Assembly: GCA_007694165.1 (NCBI GenBank)
Contig: RECE01000245.1
Span: 4,962-68,961 of the forward strand
DNA from: Bacteroidota bacterium
GTDB taxonomy: Bacteria > Bacteroidota > Bacteroidia > Bacteroidales > UBA7960
DNA length: 64,000 nt
Direction: 5' to 3'
Position numbers and translations under genes: made by a program. Shown here piece by piece: positions 4,042 through 13,923 of the stretch. Under the pieces are notes generated by a model. The model ran no database searches and was not told the origin of the DNA. It saw only the letters and a list, made by a program, of their open reading frames with translations. The stretch's first letter is position 1, and the number at the start of each line of letters is the position of its first letter.

Positions 4042-5019
4042 ATGCTATTTGTAGAAAACGATTCCCTCGACCCCTACTTTAATATCGCCGCAGAAGAATA
4101 CCTGCTCAAAAATTTTGAAAGTGACGTTATCATGCTGTGGCGAAGCAATCCATCTGTGATTGTAGGCAAACACCAAAACACCCTTGCCGAAATCAATTTA
4201 GGTTTTGTAAGAAAAAACAACATTCCTGTAATCCGGAGATTAACAGGGGGAGGCACAGTGTTTCATGATCCCGGAAATATCAACTTTACCTTTATCAAGC
4301 AAGCCGAAAAGGAAAAACTGGTGGATTTTAAAGCCCATACAGCCCCGGTGATTGATTTTTTGAACAACATTGGGGTAGACGCACGTTTTGAGGGGAAGAA
4401 CGACTTGAGGGTAAATGGACTCAAGATTTCGGGCAATGCAGAGCATATATTTAAAAATAAAGTATTGCATCATGGCACCCTTCTTTTCGATGCAAATTTG
4501 CAAACTCTCAGCGAGTCTATCAAATCAAGAGAACCCAATTTTACAAGCAAAGCTGTAAAATCTGTAAGAAGTACGGTTGTAAATATAGCTTCACTGCCGG
4601 GAGTTTCTATGGGAAGAGAAGAATTTATGGAGAAACTGGGGACTTATTTGCAGGGTTACTTTAAAAATATCAATACCTATCAGTTTAATGATGATGACAG
4701 GAGGAATGTTGAAAAGCTTAAACAGGAAAAGTATACCCAGTGGATTTGGAATTATGGCTACTCGCCCCAATACACATTCAAAAATTCCGCAAGTATTCTC
4801 AACAGAAATATTCTGGTCGAACTGACGGTAAAAAAAGGGATTATAGAAAACCTGAGGCTTTGTATTGATCTCATCAATCAGGATAACAATCCCCTGGTAC
4901 AGGCCCTCAATGGTCAGGCACACAACCCTGAGACCGTGGAGAGTGCTCTGAGCAATCAGAATTTTATGGGTTATAACCAGATTGCCGATAAATGGTTATT
5001 GACGGGCTTGTTTTTTTAG
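4042..5019 (+). CDS. lplA: Lipoate-protein ligase A
   Basis: Motifs NIAAEEYL, RRLTGGGTVFHDPGNINFTF, KISGNA, LHHGTLL, W-WNYG-SP. Confidence 0.92.
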   Translation: MLFVENDSLDPYFNIAAEEYLLKNFESDVIMLWRSNPSVIVGKHQNTLAEINLGFVRKNNIPVIRRLTGGGTVFHDPGNINFTFIKQAEKEKLVDFKAHTAPVIDFLNNIGVDARFEGKNDLRVNGLKISGNAEHIFKNKVLHHGTLLFDANLQTLSESIKSREPNFTSKAVKSVRSTVVNIASLPGVSMGREEFMEKLGTYLQGYFKNINTYQFNDDDRRNVEKLKQEKYTQWIWNYGYSPQYTFKNSASILNRNILVELTVKKGIIENLRLCIDLINQDNNPLVQALNGQAHNPETVESALSNQNFMGYNQIADKWLLTGLFF

Positions 5020-5957
5020 GTTTCGTTGTCTGGTTTCACCTGTTCTATTTCTACAACCAGCCCTTCTTCTGCAAGAATGGTATTTTCAAATAAAGTTTGA
5101 GCCTCGTCAACAAATAAGGATAATTCATCGTAACGGGCTGAATAGTGCCCCATCATTAACTTTTTTACATTTGCCTTGCTGGCAATGGTAGCTGCCTCCA
5201 AGGCAGTGCAGTGTGTTTTTTCCTTTGCAATGTCGGCTTTATCGTTAAGAAAAGTTGCTTCATGGTAGAGAAGATCGGCATTGGCTATTTCCGTGATATA
5301 GTTTTCTGTATAACCAGTATCAGAGCAACATGCATAAACGCGGGGTGGTGAAGGGGGCAATGTCATTTTTTCATTGGGAATGATTTCCCCACTGGCGGTT
5401 CGGTAATCAGCACCATTTTTAATTGCAGGGATACTACTTACAGGAATATCGAACTGTTCAATGGCCTCCTTTCTTATATTCCTTTCTGAGGGTTTTTCTT
5501 TTATCAGAAATCCATAAGCCGGCAGCCGGTGCATCATTTCAATGGTTTCGATACTGATATGGTTATCAGAATACAGCAGTTGCTTTCCTTTGGTAATAAC
5601 ATGATACTGAATATCAAAACCGGGTTCAAGTTTTGATATACGGTATTGTACTTCTATAATTTCCTGTATTCCCGAAGGAGAATACACATGCAATTTTTTC
5701 TTTCTTCCCAGCAGATGCATCGAGAAAATCAACCCTGGAAGACCCAGATAATGGTCTCCATGTAAATGAGAAATAAAAATATGGTTGATCTTCATCAAGG
5801 GCAGGCGAAACCGCCTTATCTGCATCTGTGCCCCTTCAGCACAATCAATCAGCATGTATTTGTTGTGGTAGTTTACCAGTTGTGAAGAGGTAAGCCGGGT
5901 AGAAGTAGGTATAGCCGCAGACGAGCCCAGGATATGGACCTTGAAGTTATTGCTCAT
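5016..5957 (-). CDS. rnz: Ribonuclease Z (MBL fold)
   Basis: LGSSAAIPT, DCAEG, HLHGDH, exosite insertion, HEATF, GHYSARY. Confidence 0.93.
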   Translation of the reverse strand: MSNNFKVHILGSSAAIPTSTRLTSSQLVNYHNKYMLIDCAEGAQMQIRRFRLPLMKINHIFISHLHGDHYLGLPGLIFSMHLLGRKKKLHVYSPSGIQEIIEVQYRISKLEPGFDIQYHVITKGKQLLYSDNHISIETIEMMHRLPAYGFLIKEKPSERNIRKEAIEQFDIPVSSIPAIKNGADYRTASGEIIPNEKMTLPPSPPRVYACCSDTGYTENYITEIANADLLYHEATFLNDKADIAKEKTHCTALEAATIASKANVKKLMMGHYSARYDELSLFVDEAQTLFENTILAEEGLVVEIEQVKPDNET

Positions 5958-6004
5958 AGTAGATGGATAAAAAAACGGTAAAGGAGTTTGAGGAATAAAG
6001 ATGG

Positions 6005-7165
6005 TTATTGTTCATAACTTCCTTTCTTGAGCATCTTTGAGTTTTCAACCATCAGTTTACCCATGGCAACAAGGTGAATGATATTGAAATCCTGATCCAG
6101 TACCACCAGGTCAGCATCTTTCGCAACTTCTATTCTACCCTTATTTTTTAACCAGAGGATATCGGCAATGTTACTGGTGGCAACCGTTAAAGCAAGTTCA
6201 AGATCTATTTTCTCTTCCCTTACTGTATCAGCGATTTCGTCGAATACTGATTTTGGATAACCCATTTTAAGGCTTACCAGTTTGCCATTTTCATCAAAAT
6301 CGGGCAGGGAGCCACAAGCATCACTGGTCATGGTTATATGTTTAAGGGGTACCCCTGATTTGAGCAGGCCTGCAATGGCTTTGGATGGTTTTACTTCGTA
6401 TTGAGGAAAGTAAGGGTAGGAGCTCGCCGTTATATCAATATATCCTTTTTTGCCATAGGTTTTGGCATCTTCAAAAATATAAGAGTTGCGGTTGATATGA
6501 GTAGGAAGAAACTGTTTAAAGCTCAGTTCACTCATGGCCACAATTTCATAGAGGGGTTTAAAGGGGCTTTTGGCATCGCCCATATGAATATTTACTATAC
6601 CGCATTTCCCTCCAAGCATACCGCCTACCCGGGCATGGCCTGCCAGTCTGATGAGCTCGTGAGCAGACGGGAATGAACTTCTGTGGTCAGAAATGGCTAT
6701 TTCTCCCACACCTATTATTTCCTCAATCAGTGCAATGTCTTTACCAACATCTCCCATAATGGTGGGGGTGGGCACCTGGTAGGATCCGGTATACATCCAG
6801 GCACTCACACCTTCTTGTCTCAGTGCTTTAACTTTCATCAGCACAGACTCAAGATTTCGGGTCATGCCATCAGTTCCCAGGCAACCAATTACCGTAGTAA
6901 CCCCTGCTTCCAGCATGTGGCTGAGTTGCATTTCGGGTGTTCGGCTGGCCGGGCCCCCTTCTCCGCCTGCTCCTGCAATGTGTACATGCGCATCAATGAG
7001 GCCGGGAATAACCCTGAATCCCTTTAAGTCCATTACCTTCACTTCCAGCCCCTGAGGCACAGGGATACTTTCTTCTACAGCAATAATCTGGTTTCCAGCA
7101 ATAAGGATGTCTTTAATGCCCGATTTTTCCGGCGCGTACAGTTCGCAGTTTTTTAATAATAGCAT
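6005..7165 (-). CDS. iadA: Isoaspartyl dipeptidase (beta-aspartyl peptidase, IadA, amidohydrolase fold)
   Basis: IDAHVHIAGAGGEGG, GCLGTDG, GEIAISDHRSS, HMGD, PTHINR, TSDACGSLP. Confidence 0.93.
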   Translation of the reverse strand: MLLLKNCELYAPEKSGIKDILIAGNQIIAVEESIPVPQGLEVKVMDLKGFRVIPGLIDAHVHIAGAGGEGGPASRTPEMQLSHMLEAGVTTVIGCLGTDGMTRNLESVLMKVKALRQEGVSAWMYTGSYQVPTPTIMGDVGKDIALIEEIIGVGEIAISDHRSSFPSAHELIRLAGHARVGGMLGGKCGIVNIHMGDAKSPFKPLYEIVAMSELSFKQFLPTHINRNSYIFEDAKTYGKKGYIDITASSYPYFPQYEVKPSKAIAGLLKSGVPLKHITMTSDACGSLPDFDENGKLVSLKMGYPKSVFDEIADTVREEKIDLELALTVATSNIADILWLKNKGRIEVAKDADLVVLDQDFNIIHLVAMGKLMVENSKMLKKGSYEQ

Positions 7166-7281
7166 AGTTATCGAAATGTTTTAATAGTATTTTGTTGATT
7201 TTATAAAAGATCAAAACCTCTGCAGTTCTCTCCTTAAACTCAATGGAGGATAACCAAAAGGAGGTTCTGTCAATTACCTTA

Positions 7282-9192
7282 TTATTCTGATGAATATTTA
7301 TTGATCAAGTCCCTGAGAAATGGTTTGATCATGTTTAGCAAGATGTTTTCTTTCTCATTTTCAATATAGCTAACAGTTTTCAGGGTATGGCTGTTCATAC
7401 TTAATTTTATTTGGGCATCGGATACTTCAATGAGGTATCCGCCGGGAAGCAACATGTTTTTCATGCTTTCCTCTGCCCAATTGGGGTGGTCCAGGATAAT
7501 AAGATCAGCTCCTTCATGAAAAAAACCGTAATCATATATATTTTCTCTGCTATGGTTAAAAATGGCGAAGGCAGTTTCAGGGTGTCTGAGTATAATTTTT
7601 ACATTCTGGTCATGGCTGGTGTTTTTGAAAAAATACTTTCCGTTGAAAAAAACACCTTCAGGAGCCAATGCACCCACAAATGTATCCGAATCGATCTTTT
7701 TTAGTTCCCCTAAGATTTCCGTCATCATATATTGGGTTATCTGGTTCCCTGCAATTATGGGTATTCTTGCCAGTTCGGGCTTTTTAAAATGAGACAGCAG
7801 AATCATCTCTGGTACGTCGATACTCCCGCCATAGGCAGGGGCAAGATGCATAAAGACTCCTGGTCCGGCATTGATCTCTATGATGCCAAAAATCCCCTCC
7901 CCCCAGGGTGTTGATATATCAGCTGCAAGAACATCAATACCCAGGCACTTAACTTTAAAAAAGCCTGCAATAGACTCTGCCAGTTCAATGTTTTGGGGAT
8001 GTATTTCATGGGTAACATTTACAGATACTCCGCCGGCAGAAATATTGGCAACTCTTCGCAGGAAAATGCGTTCACCATCAGCGGGTATACTGTTTAGCTG
8101 AAGATTCTGGAGCAACAGGTAGTCTAAAAGTTCTTTATCAATATGTATTTTAGCCAACGGAGAACGGGCATTGTCGAGCCGGATTTCTTTTTTGTTTTCC
8201 TCCTCAATGAGTTTTTCTATCGTATCCTGTCCATTGCCATCCACATAGGCGGGTATTCTCTTGAGTGCTGCGGCAAATTTTCCGTCAATGGTAAGAATCC
8301 GGTGATCATGACCTGCAATATGCTCTTGTACTATGGCTCCGTCAAAGTAAATATCTTCTTTCTCCGAAATGTCCATGATATTCTGGAAAGCAATTTTTAC
8401 CTCCGACTCATTTTTGATACCGGTAGTAACACCAATGCCCTTGTGGCCGGACACGGGTTTTACAACGACAGGAAAACCCAGCTTTCGGGCTTCCGAAAGA
8501 GCTTCTGTTTCTGTAAAGCAATTGCGGCCGGCAGGGGTGGGAAAACCGCACATGAGCAAAAATTCTGTCACCATATCTTTGTACATGGTAAATTCGGTAT
8601 CTTTTATTCCATCGGTGTGCATAGTGGTTGAGCGGCCGCGAAGTTGTTTAACCCCATAGCCCCATTGGTACTGATTTTCTTCTTCAAGAAAAAATACCGG
8701 GATTTCGTTTTTCATGCCCGCTTCTACAAGAGCATAAAGGGTAGGACCGCCCAAAACGGACTTGTCAAATATTCTTTTTAAAAGCTCAAACTTTTTCAAG
8801 AAATTGAACTCTTCAGTTTTACCATCATTGATAGACTTGAACCAATCACTTACCAAAACAGCGGCATCTTCAGCGGTATAATCATCGAGAAATTCAATGG
8901 CTATAACATAATCATCACCATCTTCAGTAATTGATAATTCATTGATATGAAGGTCTATGTCCATCCTTAAAACCTCCAGAAGTGTATGGGCAAATAAATC
9001 TGCCACCGTTTGTAAATTAAAGGGTTTTAACTTTGGGAATGCCTCAAAAACATAAGGTTTGTAAAAATCTACCTCCGGGCCGTCAGTTGCAATATGGAGG
9101 TTAAACACCAGCGCTTTTACAGCCAGATAATGGCTTGGGCCATAATAGAAGTAAAACTTCCTGACATCAAAATCATTCTCTTGTGTTCTCAT
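7282..9192 (-). CDS. cphA2: Cyanophycin synthetase, CphA2-like (N domain + ATP-grasp domain + short degenerate C-terminal domain), 636 aa
   Basis: ORF 7282..9261, probable ATG at 9192 (MRTQENDFDV). Motifs GGPTLYAL, QWGYGVKQLRG, PVVVKPVSGHKGIGVT, ANISAGG, GIDV, EINAGPG, RIPII. There is no Mur-ligase GTNGKTT P-loop, and the protein is much shorter than a typical CphA1 (about 870 aa). Flanked by cphB and iadA. Confidence 0.8.
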   Translation of the reverse strand: MRTQENDFDVRKFYFYYGPSHYLAVKALVFNLHIATDGPEVDFYKPYVFEAFPKLKPFNLQTVADLFAHTLLEVLRMDIDLHINELSITEDGDDYVIAIEFLDDYTAEDAAVLVSDWFKSINDGKTEEFNFLKKFELLKRIFDKSVLGGPTLYALVEAGMKNEIPVFFLEEENQYQWGYGVKQLRGRSTTMHTDGIKDTEFTMYKDMVTEFLLMCGFPTPAGRNCFTETEALSEARKLGFPVVVKPVSGHKGIGVTTGIKNESEVKIAFQNIMDISEKEDIYFDGAIVQEHIAGHDHRILTIDGKFAAALKRIPAYVDGNGQDTIEKLIEEENKKEIRLDNARSPLAKIHIDKELLDYLLLQNLQLNSIPADGERIFLRRVANISAGGVSVNVTHEIHPQNIELAESIAGFFKVKCLGIDVLAADISTPWGEGIFGIIEINAGPGVFMHLAPAYGGSIDVPEMILLSHFKKPELARIPIIAGNQITQYMMTEILGELKKIDSDTFVGALAPEGVFFNGKYFFKNTSHDQNVKIILRHPETAFAIFNHSRENIYDYGFFHEGADLIILDHPNWAEESMKNMLLPGGYLIEVSDAQIKLSMNSHTLKTVSYIENEKENILLNMIKPFLRDLINKYSSE

Positions 9193-9258
9193 AGGGCCTG
9201 GGTTTATTTGATAATGGAAAATACTACAGAAGTAAACCTGGATGATCCCGGCAGTATT

Positions 9259-9266
9259 CAAACCTA
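9259..9266 (-). promoter_or_regulatory. Possible Bacteroidota -7 box (TAGGTTTG) of an internal promoter for the cphA2-like gene
   Basis: Matches TAnnTTTG on the minus strand, about 65 bp upstream of the ATG at 9192, inside the 221-bp cphB-cphA2 gap. Confidence 0.3.
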
Positions 9267-9413
9267 CGGAAAAAATGCGAATTGTGAGCCAATTGTCTTC
9301 AAAAAAGTTGTTGAATATGCTTTTTCTTTTTCCGGCTTGCGATCCAATGGCCGCTTATGTATAGTTTAAATGTACATCTGCATTCATTAAGATTAATGGT
9401 GGAGGTTTACCTG

Positions 9414-10313
9414 TTAAGCAGTAGTATCAGTCATGGGGATTGTGCGGGAATTATCTTGAGAAGAAACAAATTTCAGGGTTTTCCAGGAGTTAAGATTGAA
9501 AAATGCCCCATGTTGCAAAAAGCCAAGTTGTATGCCGTCAATAGATATTCTTTCATTCTCCCGGATTTGGTCAAAATTGGAAAAGGTAAGATTTTCGGTG
9601 GAGACCACCGTAACAATCCCTGTACCTTTCACATACATCGTATTGTCAGGCAATATGGTTATGGAAGTGTTTTCGCCGATACCAATTCCCCTTTGGGTAT
9701 ATCCATTGCAAAGGAATTGAGTCAGCCGTCCCAGCCGGCCTCTGGCAACAAAGTGGGTGTCGATGGTAATTTTCTCAATAAAACCAAAACCTTTATCATA
9801 TTTAACCGAACCTTTCATCAGCCCCTGGTTGTCACCATCATATGTCATGGGGTCTGCGGCTGCGGACGCACCGGCTGAAGTACCTGCCACAGTAAGTCTT
9901 TCGTTCAAAAACCTGTATTTGATTTGGTCAATGAGCTTTGAGCCGAGCAAAATCCTGGTGAGTCTTACCTGATCGCCACCGGTAAAAAATACCATATCAG
10001 CCTTTTGAAGCTTTTCGAAATAATGGTTCTTATCCGCTTCCCGTGAGTTACGTATGTCGAAAATATCAATATTCTTTACTCCCAGTTCACGGAATACATA
10101 ATAATAATCCTCTCCACACTCAATAGGGTATAGGGTTGCAGTTGGAATGATGATAACATTTTCAGCTTTGTTGATTCCAATGAGATCACCCAGGACAATT
10201 CTCTCGTCTTTGCGGTCTTCAGCCCCACCTATTAATACAAGGTTTCCTTTTTCAGCGGATGTTGCAGGTGTTCTCATTCGCATTATCTTTTTTGGGACGA
10301 TTACATGGTGCAA
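9414..10313 (-). CDS. cphB: Cyanophycinase (peptidase S51), no signal peptide
   Basis: LIGGAED, IIPTA, FFTGGDQ, GTSAGA (Ser nucleophile), DTHF-x-x-RGRLGRL (His), GIGIGENT (Glu). Confidence 0.92.
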   Translation of the reverse strand: MHHVIVPKKIMRMRTPATSAEKGNLVLIGGAEDRKDERIVLGDLIGINKAENVIIIPTATLYPIECGEDYYYVFRELGVKNIDIFDIRNSREADKNHYFEKLQKADMVFFTGGDQVRLTRILLGSKLIDQIKYRFLNERLTVAGTSAGASAAADPMTYDGDNQGLMKGSVKYDKGFGFIEKITIDTHFVARGRLGRLTQFLCNGYTQRGIGIGENTSITILPDNTMYVKGTGIVTVVSTENLTFSNFDQIRENERISIDGIQLGFLQHGAFFNLNSWKTLKFVSSQDNSRTIPMTDTTA

Positions 10314-10344
10314 AAGGGTGTGTTTTTTTAATAACCCTTTCCTG

Positions 10345-10352
10345 CAAATTTA
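10345..10352 (-). promoter_or_regulatory. Bacteroidota sigma-A -7 box (TAAATTTG) upstream of cphB
   Basis: TAnnTTTG on the minus strand, about 30 bp upstream of the cphB start. Confidence 0.5.
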
Positions 10353-10530
10353 ACGATTTTATTATTTCTTTTTGGATTTGTCAGCAGAGTTGCTGGCAAA
10401 TCTCCAGGAGCGCATATGTTATATTATTGTCCCTACATTAATTTGTAAAGTGCGCTGCACTTTTATACTCGTTCCGGGGCGTGCAATTTTAATTCTCAAC
10501 GGGGGCGGTTTCCTGATTCTTTTTATATGG

Positions 10531-10562
10531 AAAAGGCCTCAACTTATAGCAAGTGAGGCCTT
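10531..10562 (-). terminator. Rho-independent terminator of the DUF6580 gene
   Basis: Minus strand reads AAGGCCTCA-cttgctataagt-TGAGGCCTT-TT, about 27 bp downstream of the stop at 10589. Confidence 0.7.
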
Positions 10563-10588
10563 CTTATTCAAAAGGGTTAAAGGTTTAT

Positions 10589-11122
10589 TCAGACTTTGAT
10601 ATGCGACAGAGAAGGATATTTTTGTTGTACAAGATAGAATCCACCAAAGAATACTCCTGAGTAGAACAAATCGCCCAAAACAGAAGAGTGGAAAAAGGGG
10701 ATTGCCATGGTGTATGACTGCATCAAACCGGCGAAGGTTTGCGGGTAAAAGGGGCTACCTGCCCATACGGCAAAATTGGTAATAAGGAAAAAGAGGACAG
10801 AAGATGCAAGAGCGCCACCCAAAACGGTAGACACCCGTACATTGTTTTTCATCAATTGTCCAAGGAGCACTACCAGTGCAAAACTTACATAAACCGGAAT
10901 CATGAAACCGTGAAAGCCAATAATCATATCGCTTACAAAAAGCGCGAATAAAGGAATGAAGAATGCCAGCCACTTTCTGCCAAGATGAGCTCCTCCAAAA
11001 AGTGCTATAGCTGCAATGGGGGTAAAGTTGGGATAATGAGGTACAAGGCGCATGACGGCGGCAAATATTATGATTCCGGCAATTACAAGCACTTTGGGGC
11101 TTACTATTTCTTTCAGATTCAT
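10589..11122 (-). CDS. DUF6580-family putative transport membrane protein (resembles an ECF S-component)
   Basis: ORF 10589..11167, probable ATG at 11122. RLVPHYPNFTPIAAIALFGGA, SSVLFFLITNFAVW, Y-MAIPFF, GDLFYS; about 5-6 TM helices. Confidence 0.75.
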   Translation of the reverse strand: MNLKEIVSPKVLVIAGIIIFAAVMRLVPHYPNFTPIAAIALFGGAHLGRKWLAFFIPLFALFVSDMIIGFHGFMIPVYVSFALVVLLGQLMKNNVRVSTVLGGALASSVLFFLITNFAVWAGSPFYPQTFAGLMQSYTMAIPFFHSSVLGDLFYSGVFFGGFYLVQQKYPSLSHIKV

Positions 11123-11164
11123 TTTTATAATTATTAGATTTACAATTCGATTGGGATTTACGGG

Positions 11165-11172
11165 CAAAAGTA
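11165..11172 (-). promoter_or_regulatory. -7 box (TACTTTTG) upstream of the DUF6580 gene
   Basis: TAnnTTTG about 43 bp upstream of the ATG at 11122. Confidence 0.45.
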
Positions 11173-11244
11173 AAAAATCCTTTTCATTTTAAACAGCATA
11201 AAAATACTTTTGTTTCCCTTTTACTAATTATTATCTCGTGGGGG

Positions 11245-11703
11245 ATGACAACCTTTTGTTATCACTCACATCAATTATCGACAATATTTATGATGAACTG
11301 GCTTCACATCATCGACTGGATTCTGTTTATTTTCCATTTTTTGTTTGTCCTGTTTAATCTTACAGGCTGGATTTGGAGAGCTACGCGCAAACTTCACCTG
11401 GTGAGTATCTTGCTCACTTTTGGATCGTGGTTTATCCTGGGCATATTTTATGGCTGGGGTTATTGCCCTTTAACCGACTGGCACTGGTCTGTTTTGAATA
11501 AGATGGGAAAATATGGATTGCCTAATTCTTATGTATCTTATCTTATTGAACGGACTACTGGCTTTTCTTTGCCTGATATGCTGGTGGACTTCCTTACCCT
11601 TCTATTTGCCCTGGTTGCCCTGGCTCTTTCTGTCAGATACAACTTTTTCAAAAAAAACAAACATACCTTTGTGCGAAAAAAAATCATTGACAGGACTGAT
11701 TAA
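11245..11703 (+). CDS. DUF2784-family membrane protein
   Basis: H-x-x-FVLFNLTGW, GWGYCPLTDWHW; the true start may be the internal MMNWL. Confidence 0.75.
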   Translation: MTTFCYHSHQLSTIFMMNWLHIIDWILFIFHFLFVLFNLTGWIWRATRKLHLVSILLTFGSWFILGIFYGWGYCPLTDWHWSVLNKMGKYGLPNSYVSYLIERTTGFSLPDMLVDFLTLLFALVALALSVRYNFFKKNKHTFVRKKIIDRTD

Positions 11704-11928: not shown

Positions 11929-13923
11929 ATGACATATCCTGAATATCTTGAAAATGATAAATACCTGCAGCCCTTTGCAGAGGCCATTACCGGACGTATA
12001 AAGCGTGCTGAAGAAAGAGAGAAGCAGCTGGTGGGAAATTCATCACTTTCTGATTTTGCCGTAGGCTATATGTATTATGGCCTGCACAAACAAAAAGATA
12101 CCTGGATCATGCGCGAGTGGGCACCCAATGCAACTAAAATATATCTGACAGGCGATTTTTCTGCCTGGCAGCTGAGGGAGGAATTTGTATTTCAGAATAT
12201 TGGCAACGGAAACTGGAGTATTGAGTTACCTCTCAAAACCCTGAAACATGGAGATTTGTACAAACTGCATGTATGTTGGAACGGAGATAGTGGCGACAGG
12301 ATTCCTGCATGGGCCCGCCGGGTAGTGCAGGATGAACATACCAATAATTTCAGCACCCAGGTGTGGGACCCCCAAAAAACCTACCAATGGAAACACAAAG
12401 CCCCCAAAAAGAAGGCATCTTTTTCCCCATTGGTTTATGAGGCGCATATTGGCATGGCTACTGAGGAATATGGAGTGGGAACTTATGAGAATTTCAGGAA
12501 AAACATTTTACCCGGAATCAAAAATTCCGGATACAATACCATCCAGTTTATGGCCATCCAGGAACATCCGTACTATGGGTCCTTTGGTTATCATGTGAGC
12601 AGTTTTTTTGCAGCAACCTCACGTTTTGGAACGCCCGAAGAGCTAAAGGCACTCATTGATGATGCCCACGGAATGGGAATACATGTCATTATGGATATTG
12701 TGCATTCACATGCGGTAAAAAATGAAGTGGAGGGGATAAGCAGATATGATGGCTCCCTTTACCAGTTTTTTCATGACGGCCCGAGAGGCGACCATCCTGC
12801 GTGGGACAGCCGTTGCTTTGATTATGGAAAAAATGAAGTATTGCATTTTCTTCTTTCCAACTGTAAATTCTGGCTGGATGAATATCGTTTTGACGGTTAT
12901 CGCTTTGATGGAATCACCAGTATGTTGTTCAAAGATCATGGACTGGGCAGTGCTTTTAGTGAATACAAGCAATACTATGATGGCAACCAGGATGACGACG
13001 CCATTGTATATCTGAAACTGGCCAATAAGCTGATTCACCAGGTAAATCCCGATGCAATAACCATTGCAGAGGAGATGAGCGGTATGCCCGGTCTGGCAAC
13101 ACCTCAGGCAAAAGGAGGGTACGGATTTAACTATCGCCTTGCCATGGGCATACCTGATTTCTGGATAAAAACCATTAAAGAGAAAAAAATCGAATTCTGG
13201 CATGTAGGAGATTTATTCCATAATCTTTCCAATAAACGTGCGGATGAACAAACCATTCATTACGCGGAGTCGCATGATCAGGCGCTGGTAGGGGATAAAA
13301 CCATCATTTTCTGGCTTCTGGATAAGGAGATGTATTATAATATGCATGTAAGCCATCAGAGTATTGTTGTGGAAAACGGTATTGCCCTTCATAAAATGAT
13401 TCGTTTGGTTACTCTTGCCACCGCCGGCGATGGCTATCTGAATTTCATGGGCAATGAATTCGGCCACCCCGAATGGATAGACTTTCCGGGAAGACACAAT
13501 AACTGGTCTTATCATTATGCCCGCAGGCAATGGAGCCTGGCAAAAAATAAAGAGCTACGATATCAGTTTCTTAATCGTTTTGATCAGGAAATGATAAAAC
13601 TTTTCAGTGACCACAAATTGCTGCAAAAAGATTTACAGTATCCACGGGTGCAAAATGCAAATGATCAGGTGCTGATTTTTGAAAGAGGGAAGTATTTGTT
13701 TGTATTCAATTTCAACCCTTTCAACTCTTATACGGATTATTCATTTGAAGCCGGTGCCGGAAAGTATTCAGTTGTTCTGGATAGCGATAGTAAAGAATTG
13801 GGAGGTTTTGGAAGGCAACAGCAGGATCAGATTCATCATGCCTTTAAAAACCCGGAGGGAAAAACTGTACTCAGTCTTTATATTCCTTCTCTTTGTTCAT
13901 TTGTATTGGAGAGAAGTAAATAG
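11929..13923 (+). CDS. glgB: 1,4-alpha-glucan branching enzyme (GH13_8 type)
   Basis: REWAPNA, YEAHIGMA, GSFGYHV, FDGYRFDGITSM (nucleophile), IAEEMSG, YAESHDQ, FMGNEFGHPEWIDFP. Confidence 0.95.
   Translation: MTYPEYLENDKYLQPFAEAITGRIKRAEEREKQLVGNSSLSDFAVGYMYYGLHKQKDTWIMREWAPNATKIYLTGDFSAWQLREEFVFQNIGNGNWSIELPLKTLKHGDLYKLHVCWNGDSGDRIPAWARRVVQDEHTNNFSTQVWDPQKTYQWKHKAPKKKASFSPLVYEAHIGMATEEYGVGTYENFRKNILPGIKNSGYNTIQFMAIQEHPYYGSFGYHVSSFFAATSRFGTPEELKALIDDAHGMGIHVIMDIVHSHAVKNEVEGISRYDGSLYQFFHDGPRGDHPAWDSRCFDYGKNEVLHFLLSNCKFWLDEYRFDGYRFDGITSMLFKDHGLGSAFSEYKQYYDGNQDDDAIVYLKLANKLIHQVNPDAITIAEEMSGMPGLATPQAKGGYGFNYRLAMGIPDFWIKTIKEKKIEFWHVGDLFHNLSNKRADEQTIHYAESHDQALVGDKTIIFWLLDKEMYYNMHVSHQSIVVENGIALHKMIRLVTLATAGDGYLNFMGNEFGHPEWIDFPGRHNNWSYHYARRQWSLAKNKELRYQFLNRFDQEMIKLFSDHKLLQKDLQYPRVQNANDQVLIFERGKYLFVFNFNPFNSYTDYSFEAGAGKYSVVLDSDSKELGGFGRQQQDQIHHAFKNPEGKTVLSLYIPSLCSFVLERSK

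Follow-up and report, generated by a model that had tools for sequence, protein, structure and literature searches.

What does a heterotrophic member of the Bacteroidales do with a cyanophycin polymerase encoded between a cyanophycinase and a dipeptidase? The question is raised by a 64,000-nucleotide stretch of contig RECE01000245.1 (positions 4,962 to 68,961 of the forward strand; assembly GCA_007694165.1), hereafter the window, in which the three co-oriented genes cphB, cphA2 and iadA fill positions 6005-10313 on the minus strand. An earlier note, made from the sequence alone, had read them as a cycle that stores or burns cyanophycin dipeptides taken from other organisms, on the premise that the genome lacks cphA1 and with it de novo synthesis. 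The premise is wrong, as described below. The scavenging, banking and burning of β-aspartyl-arginine (β-Asp-Arg) is still the leading reading of the locus, held with about as much belief as doubt, and it now leans on a CphA1 homologue that looks catalytically dead at both of its synthetic sites.

The cphB-cphA2-iadA observation itself is confirmed. The three open reading frames (ORFs) have exactly the limits noted beforehand and are spaced by 221 nt (cphB-cphA2) and 116 nt (cphA2-iadA), and RNase Z, the gene that comes next, lies a further 47 nt on. CphB reaches 194.9 bits on the cyanophycinase model TIGR02069 (cut-off 126.6) and matches the solved enzymes 7uqv (167.7 bits) and 3en0 (128.6 bits); its stretches GTSAG, D-T-H-F and G-E-N-T align to their counterparts in both, and we take these stretches to hold the Ser-His-Glu triad. 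Its start, MRMRTPATSAEKGNLVLIGGAED, read directly, has no hydrophobic N-terminus and passes directly into strand one of the S51 fold. Since the alignment begins at residue 5 of 7uqv, a signal peptide would not fit, and the cytoplasmic location that had been assigned to this enzyme is borne out. IadA scores 474.9 bits on TIGR01975 (cut-off 331.25), matches Escherichia coli IadA (1onw) end to end (333.2 bits, residues 3-385) and is encoded by the only IadA-type gene found in a search of the whole assembly. The ratio of nonsynonymous to synonymous substitution rates (dN/dS) is 0.103 for cphB against the related genome G001, 0.146 for cphA2 and 0.035 for iadA. As had been noted, cphA1 is absent from the window, where the only match to the CphA1 model TIGR02068 on the contig is cphA2 itself.

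The middle gene is, by its scores and residues, a true CphA2, as the earlier note had it. The protein scores 458.5 bits against the CphA2 structure 7ta5 (residues 6-597) and 422.4 bits against 8fxh, CphA1 structures reaching at most 209 bits, and it matches the 862-position TIGR02068 only at positions 80-568 (313.7 bits). In a tree with CphA1 as the outgroup it falls inside the CphA2-like clade, with full support (100) in the Shimodaira-Hasegawa-like approximate likelihood ratio test (SH-aLRT). Residue numbers for the Stanieria enzyme, StCphA2, were taken from PMC10273328; the Stanieria sequence was recovered as P0314 and agrees at 14 of 14 numbered residues. Residues P162, T163, T202, R308, D362, R389, N393, S395 and G455 of StCphA2 are retained in the window protein and in all 20 clade members compared. 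D212 is Glu in all 20, H208 is replaced by Ile, and the residues Q416 and R528 of the Stanieria hexamer are not retained in the window protein. The ATP-grasp signatures VVVKP, GHKGIGV, ANISAGG and IEINAGPG are present, the P-loop of the Mur-ligase-like domain is missing as in cyanobacterial CphA2 (IIAGNQITQ replaces TGTNGKT), and the Cx19HxxEH motif does not occur in the first 200 residues. These features predict β-Asp-Arg polymerase activity for the protein.

A cphA1 homologue does exist elsewhere in the genome. The assembly (5.27 Mb, 395 contigs, 98.4% complete, 8.3% estimated contamination) holds on the 207-kb contig C87 a full-length gene for a 911-amino-acid (aa) protein with cyanophycin-synthase N, ATP-grasp and Mur-ligase middle domains, which scores 726.8 bits on TIGR02068, under the cut-off of 850. 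The neighbours of the gene are pepE (309.3 bits, cut-off 156) on the upstream side and a DUF4831 gene on the downstream side (L001:632-4179). All five related metagenome-assembled genomes (MAGs) tested carry both a CphA1-type gene and CphA2, with the flanks GroES-like/pepE/cphA1/DUF4831 in each; four of these CphA1-type genes score 701-716 bits, and the G001 copy is divided between the ends of two contigs. At E ≤ 1e-20, searches of the own genome and the five relatives gave MurE-like ligases but no further CphA homologue. Each of the six lineage genomes has pepE (alpha-aspartyl dipeptidase equivalog) immediately ahead of the degenerate cphA1 (L019-L022 among the loci); in three other cphA1-containing clusters (L046, L068, L069) pepE is not beside cphA1.

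The earlier note had named a full-length cphA1 elsewhere in the genome as evidence against its proposal. Such a gene is formally present, but its product is without the residues of both synthetic sites. Compared with 29 diverse CphA1 representatives of 840-940 aa, the C87 protein retains 27 of 44 near-invariant columns in the G domain and 26 of 46 in the M domain. In the G domain, the glycine-rich loop GNQGKGV reads NSKTRKV, the segment IEVNAAPG with the Mg-binding Glu and Asn reads IINVLAAPD, the large-loop motif ANLSTGG reads HTSPAVGA, and the Arg equivalent to R308 of StCphA2 is Leu. In the M domain, EDHLG with the Asp-His pair reads ESYIP, the C-terminal motif DYGHNP reads DKPSGN, and the motifs GDR and RGR are lost. 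The replaced catalytic positions differ among the five full-length members of the lineage, as expected once constraint is relaxed: the Asp of the pair is lost in all five and the His is kept in two, the pair being Ser-Tyr in the C87 protein. Aligned with SuCphA1 (7lg5, native numbering verified on C59, H79, E82 and H83), H267 is Thr and D585/H586 are Ser/Tyr, the very positions at which H267A and D585A/H586A give the G-minus and M-minus mutants of PMC9262961.

The N-site is intact. The Cx19HxxEH motif occupies residues 74-98 of the C87 protein and is present in all five lineage members, and SuCphA1 residues H57, C59, F67, R70, H79, E82, H83 and E87 are aligned and retained. Against G001, the dN/dS of the gene is 0.071 over codons 1-277 and 0.127 over codons 287-910, compared with 0.072 for pepE. 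Within the lineage, identity is 0.59 in the N domain, 0.55 in G and 0.59 in the M core, and looser (0.35) in the C-terminal part. The relic is not a pseudogene, because a dN/dS of 0.07-0.13 indicates purifying selection. CphA2 thus appears to hold the only intact polymerising site of the lineage, and the organism probably cannot make β-Asp-Arg de novo. This part of the earlier proposal survives on the strength of synthetic sites that look dead and not, as had been supposed, of an absent cphA1.

A source for the dipeptide is suggested by other contigs of the assembly, in which an exported cyanophycinase and a transporter had been among the genes to look for. The first gene on contig C78, incomplete at the contig end, encodes a second cyanophycinase (152.7 bits, above the cut-off), and 24 nt after it starts a gene of the DcuC/YfcC transporter family (PF03606, 335.2 bits), the only DcuC-family gene in the assembly. 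Full-length orthologues in relatives carry lipoprotein-like signals (…LLSGC, …SLAYC) and the same transporter downstream; of the three related MAGs with this exported type, two have DcuC beside the gene. Across the order, 16 of 19 exported-type loci encode a hydrophobic N-terminus ending in Cys (read directly, without a predictor), DcuC is adjacent in 9 and iadA lies within 7, the own locus being without iadA. Three sampled genomes of the window's own family (G037, G178, G294) hold the exported type and neither CphA1 nor CphA2, and scavenging would therefore be the older trait. A possible secreted cyanophycinase is the 445-aa S51 protein on contig C56 (L011:1210-2547), which has a signal peptide and a type A sorting domain of the type IX secretion system (T9SS; 46.7 bits) and scores 62.8 bits, below the cut-off, on the cyanophycinase model. 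Larger S51 proteins (frames of 520-792 aa) occur in relatives. An Asparaginase_2 (IaaA-like) gene lies on contig C66 (375.8 bits), and the search of the own genome gave no match to AstE/AspA (CphZ-type).

Building on the established gene identities, conserved residues, motif losses, synteny and selection, we would assign the enzyme activities, the transporter substrate and the origin of the dipeptide as follows. The three genes of the window would form a cytoplasmic node that sets the fate of β-Asp-Arg. CphB would free the dipeptide from stored polymer, IadA would split it into Asp and Arg ("burn"), and CphA2 would re-polymerise it at the cost of one ATP per dipeptide ("store"). This corresponds to the fork described in PMC10273328, where β-Asp-Arg is either hydrolyzed by IadA or re-polymerised by CphA2. 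Environmental cyanophycin would be digested by the exported cyanophycinase of C78 and perhaps by the T9SS-secreted S51 peptidase of C56; the dipeptide would then enter through the DcuC/YfcC-family transporter encoded next to the C78 gene, to be banked or burned by the window cluster. The dipeptide most likely comes from outside, because the CphA1 relic is without both synthetic sites and an exported-type cyanophycinase with a neighbouring importer is present. The relic may act as a helper that supplies primers or binds the polymer, a role we infer from two reports: CphA2 assays use a (β-Asp-Arg)3 primer (PMC10273328), and the CphA1 N domain supplies primers in trans (PMC9262961). Conserved promoters ahead of both cphB and cphA2 would allow release and re-storage to be regulated separately.

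These promoters and the gene order recur in relatives (Table 1). The nearest public loci are six contigs titled as Bacteroidales MAGs. Five of them share the order cphB-cphA2-iadA-RNase Z-LplA-HEAT, so that the expected conservation of the three-gene order holds there, and the sixth begins inside cphA2. The -7 boxes that had been noted, one before cphB and a possible second before cphA2, are both present; the Bacteroidetes -7 consensus we assume is TAnnTTTG. Octamers of this class show no enrichment in the window, 74 occurring where shuffles give 68.2 ± 7.6. Each of the two octamers recurs unchanged at its place, that of cphB in three of four related loci and that of cphA2, 65-82 nt ahead of the gene, in all five, across relatives whose proteins are 68-94% identical. 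A box also stands before iadA in three relatives, and none before iadA of the window. Conservation of the octamers before both genes makes it plausible that cphB and cphA2 are transcribed separately. A sigma-70 promoter and terminator scan, the promoter part of which is uninformative for Bacteroidetes, listed no terminator candidate in either gap within the cluster.

Table 1. Features of the cyanophycin cluster and its surroundings (window positions)
Feature	Position	Strand	Remarks
iadA	6005..7165	minus	Isoaspartyl (β-aspartyl) dipeptidase
cphA2	7282..9192	minus	636-aa CphA2-type protein; frame open from 9261, probable ATG at 9192
cphA2 domains	7282..9192	minus	N domain, ATP-grasp G domain, vestigial M domain
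-7 box TAGGTTTG	9259..9266	minus	Upstream of cphA2, 67 nt before the probable start; second promoter inside the cluster
cphB	9414..10283	minus	Cytoplasmic cyanophycinase; ORF open from TTG at 10313, probable start ATG at 10283
-7 box TAAATTTG	10345..10352	minus	Bacteroidetes-type, upstream of cphB, 62 nt before the probable start
Hairpin followed by TTTT	10535..10560	minus	Terminator-like, 29 nt past the DUF6580 stop; read directly
DUF6580 membrane protein gene	10589..11167	minus	202.8 bits; upstream of cphB on the same strand
664-aa ORF	11929..13923	plus	Resembles glycogen branching enzyme (by eye); starts about 1.6 kb from cphB

The DUF6580 gene was considered as a transporter gene of the cluster and set aside: it adjoins cphB in only two of four loci with upstream sequence, and the terminator-like hairpin, which the terminator scan did not list as its loop and bulge lie outside the scan rules, separates it from the cluster. 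It is probably unrelated to the cluster. The putative glycogen branching enzyme ORF is syntenic in L014; should the resemblance be right, a carbon-storage gene adjoins the nitrogen-storage cluster.

CphA2-type proteins extend well beyond this lineage. A word-indexed search returned 1226 proteins with E ≤ 1e-50 to the window CphA2, and the best 120 of these are 56-100% identical to it and come, by their source names, from Bacteroidales, Bacteroidota or Cloacimonetes MAGs. Of the matches with an NCBI name, many are called "acetate--CoA ligase family protein", others "cyanophycin synthetase" or "hypothetical protein", and the first of these names hides CphA2-type proteins from cyanophycin surveys that rely on annotation. 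Of 301 genomes sampled evenly across the window's order, 25 (~8%, the own genome included) have a full-length CphA2-type match (at least 49% identity, E ≤ 1.4e-198), interrupted in two of them by one in-frame stop. CphA2 is described as cyanobacterial in PMC10206079 and PMC10273328, and PMC9974463 places it only in cyanobacteria that possess CphA1. A distribution confined to cyanobacteria is contradicted by the Bacteroidales MAG records and by the 25 genomes of the order. No paper describing CphA2 in Bacteroidota was found in the full-text literature, subscription papers and supplements being outside its reach.

The quick maximum-likelihood tree of CphA2 comprised 61 rows: 19 of the best 120 matches, 12 representatives, 20 sequences from a second homology search, through which the named cyanobacterial rows were obtained, and 9 CphA1 rows as the outgroup. 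All 15 named cyanobacterial rows fall in one clade of 21 rows (SH-aLRT 100), the 27 rows of the Bacteroidales/Cloacimonetes type group apart from it in a clade of their own (SH-aLRT 96), and four more deep CphA2-like lineages branch from an unresolved backbone. A recent transfer of cphA2 from cyanobacteria is not supported, the Bacteroidales type not being nested in the cyanobacterial clade; with this backbone no direction is claimed. CphA2 is a broad and old family, beyond the cyanobacterial-only picture in the literature. The 24 other genomes of the order sample hold 27 CphA2 loci, several of which end at contig ends. Among these loci, iadA comes immediately after cphA2 in 11 and is 3.5 kb away in 1 more, cphB comes immediately before it in 6 and is 1.8 kb away in 1 more, all three genes stand together in 6, and cphA1 joins the cluster in 3. 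Three genomes carry two CphA2 paralogues (L052, L053 and L056, that is G063:C1, G071:C29 and G277:C27, against L055, L050 and L046). One paralogue is linked to iadA and has open frames of 637-641 aa; the other has ~674-708 aa with neither cphB nor iadA within 6 kb. The tree divides the Bacteroidales CphA2 clade into two subclades that match these types. Among metagenomes, contigs of run X2 (soda lake metagenome label) carry the window stretch at 99% identity or more, and run X3, a sediment metagenome from another study, holds a relative at 90-95%. In one metatranscriptome (X10, same study as X2), of which ~6% of the run was read, no reads fell on positions 4900-11300, which is too little to weigh.

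Across the order, the CphA1 partner of CphA2 is found in several states. CphA1-type matches of at least 667 bits occur in 27 of the 301 genomes, 21 of which also have CphA2, making CphA2 the usual companion of cyanophycin genes in this heterotrophic order. On closer inspection, a CphA1-type gene or a fragment of one is present in 23 of the 25 CphA2 genomes. No CphA1-type gene was found in G160 (90% complete) or G286 (87%). Two further candidates for CphA2 without CphA1 were rejected, since a contig-end fragment is present in G284 and a divergent 700-aa form in G211. In state A, five genomes without CphA2 have a canonical CphA1 (>1100 bits) with all motifs intact. In state B, five genomes with CphA2 have a full-length protein with intact catalytic motifs, in which the Arg is Leu, ANLSTGG is SGNxRLGG and APG is APD. 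State C comprises 16-17 genomes with a protein of ~740 aa (loci L087-L100, L068 and L069; G170, G169, G115 and others), all but G059 also with CphA2; the catalytic motifs of the G domain and the N-site motif are present, the Asp-His pair is lost and the C-terminal Mur subdomain is absent. State D, with both sites lost, is that of the window's lineage. A tree calculated by a quick method under the LG+G4 model unites states B, C and D (SH-aLRT 100) to the exclusion of A and the references, and within it D is monophyletic in turn (100). Judged by their motifs, the states make up a graded natural series of CphA1 decay beside CphA2 that ends in a protein with only the primer-making site kept. The genomes of state C may be without any Arg-adding site; we know of no active CphA1 of ~740 aa. 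The CphA of Desulfitobacterium hafniense was considered as a short active form and dropped, being listed at 885 aa (PMC8050183).

The same data bear on other explanations. The cluster could belong to an ordinary endogenous cycle as in cyanobacteria, in which the C87 protein still makes cyanophycin, alone or with CphA2, the cluster degrades and recycles it, and the exported locus is a separate catabolic trait. A cphA1 homologue does accompany cphA2 in 23 of 25 genomes of the order sample and in all six of the lineage, lies in the same cluster in three genomes, and in the lineage is under purifying selection with its P-loop kept; the reported restriction of CphA2 to organisms with CphA1 (PMC9974463) fits as well. 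The C87 protein, however, has lost the Mg ligands, the glycine loop and the conserved Arg of the G-site together with the Asp-His pair, DYxHNP, GDR and RGR of the M-site, at positions that vary among lineage members, and it stays under the cut-off of the model, all of which leaves the endogenous cycle improbable in our view. It is just as doubtful that the cluster is mainly catabolic, with CphB and IadA digesting imported oligomers or dipeptides and the CphA2-like protein serving another β-aspartyl substrate or a transient sequestration. The retention, in 20 of 20 clade members, of the residues that mutagenesis of StCphA2 defined as binding cyanophycin and the dipeptide goes against this, as does the conservation of cphA2 between cphB and iadA with a promoter of its own, and a cytoplasmic cyanophycinase makes sense only with polymer inside the cell. 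Such catabolism would agree with the arrangement iadA-cphE-dcuC without CphA, which is common in the order (iadA in 7 of 19 exported-type loci), with the excess of genomes that have cyanophycinase (59 of 301) over those with any CphA (~31), with the promiscuity of IadA from cyanophycin clusters (PMC10206079), and with the second CphA2 paralogue of ~670 aa in unrelated contexts in Bacteroidales.

An assembly of 395 contigs with contamination at the estimated level could also have brought in the C87 relic or the exported cyanophycinase of C78 from another organism. Mis-binning is unlikely, and we give it hardly any weight: C87 and the window contig C92 agree in GC content (0.420 and 0.417), contigs C87, C92, C78 and C56 lie near the tetranucleotide centroid (ranks 27, 44, 33 and 24 of 285), and in five separately deposited related MAGs both the cphA2 cluster and pepE-cphA1 occur with unchanged neighbours, three of these MAGs also having the exported type.

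The scavenging and banking of β-Asp-Arg has its own difficulties. All genomes concerned are MAGs, the own one contaminated to the extent given above. The C78 cyanophycinase is cut by the contig end, so its export signal is read from orthologues, and the exported type is found in only four of the six lineage genomes. That the DcuC-type transporter carries β-Asp-Arg is inferred. The relic keeps its P-loop GSAGKS in all five full-length lineage members along with the LET, NADD and HGR motifs, and purifying selection spans its G and M folds too; it may retain some catalytic or ATP-dependent role. In five other Bacteroidales genomes CphA2 is accompanied by a CphA1 with intact catalytic motifs, and in three genomes cphA1 is part of the cluster, a pattern that fits ordinary recycling. 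The cphA2 of G003 (L015:413-2319) has a frame break near codon 45, a frameshift or an assembly error, the rest of the gene being intact and 68% identical to the window protein. These points all weigh against the preferred reading.

Taken further, the scavenging and banking of β-Asp-Arg would amount to a second-hand economy in a lineage of sediment Bacteroidales unable to form the Asp-Arg isopeptide bond, in which the dipeptide is harvested from the cyanophycin of others, CphA2 is the sole polymerase and the relic, an N-plus, G-minus, M-minus (N+G-M-) protein, binds the polymer and cuts primers in trans. We advance this extension tentatively, with more doubt than belief, along with the idea that banking by CphA2 is perhaps common in anaerobic Bacteroidales. 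If the ~740-aa forms of ~16 more genomes are inactive at the Arg-adding site, CphA2 banking without de novo synthesis may be common. If a dipeptide polymerase can stand alone, cyanophycin would be a transferable nitrogen currency, passed from producers to scavengers in mats and sediments. The presence of cphA could then no longer be equated with the making of cyanophycin when nitrogen storage is read from metagenomes, and bioproduction would gain a polymerase from anaerobes that has a single site and spends one ATP, together with a natural subunit that supplies primers. The earlier note had presented the whole strategy as undescribed. This holds for the banking step only, since the scavenging of cyanophycin or its dipeptide by heterotrophs is already in print (PMC9974463, PMC10206079).

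Among known systems, the cyanobacterial CphA2 enzymes of Gloeothece citriformis (7ta5) and Stanieria sp. NIES-3757 (8fxh/8fxi) are the closest. They share with the window protein the three-domain build of ~636 aa, the intact ATP-grasp site, an M domain without P-loop, an N domain without the peptidase motif and the residues defined by mutagenesis. As in the cph2 pair of Anabaena, cphB2/cphA2 (Picossi 2004 and Klemke 2016, via PMC10273328), cphA2 is linked to a cyanophycinase gene. In contrast to the cyanobacterial enzymes, the window protein belongs to a heterotrophic member of the Bacteroidales and to a separate clade, and it differs from them at the D212, H208 and Q416/R528 positions. Its gene is clustered with iadA, whereas the cyanobacterial one is unlinked to a dipeptidase, and its partner CphA1 looks inactive. 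Outside cyanobacteria, clusters of cphA1, cyanophycinase and iadA are known from 37 of 231 genomes with all three genes (PMC10206079). The window cluster resembles these in encoding a cyanophycinase and IadA with a cyanophycin synthetase, which is CphA2 instead of CphA1. CphA2, which that paper calls cyanobacterial, was outside its survey, and the dipeptidase of Bacteroidota is given there as undiscovered.

The utilisation loci of scavengers consist of cyanophycinase, iadA and a transporter gene (Ben Hania et al., via PMC10206079), and Pseudomonas scavenges β-Asp-Arg by means of AotJQMP and CphZ (PMC9974463). The genome described here is similar in that an exported-type cyanophycinase adjoins a transporter (C78) and a dipeptidase is present, and orthologous iadA-cphE-dcuC loci are common in the order. 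Unlike these scavengers, which are known for catabolism only, it adds a dipeptide polymerase and a cytoplasmic cyanophycinase, with iadA moved to their cluster. The C87 protein, finally, has its counterpart in the laboratory. With its N-site intact and its G and M residues absent, it resembles the engineered N+G-M- protomer of SuCphA1 (E82 wild type, H267A, D585A/H586A; PMC9262961). It differs from that protomer in being natural, conserved, under purifying selection and encoded beside pepE, and its putative partner is CphA2 and not CphA1.

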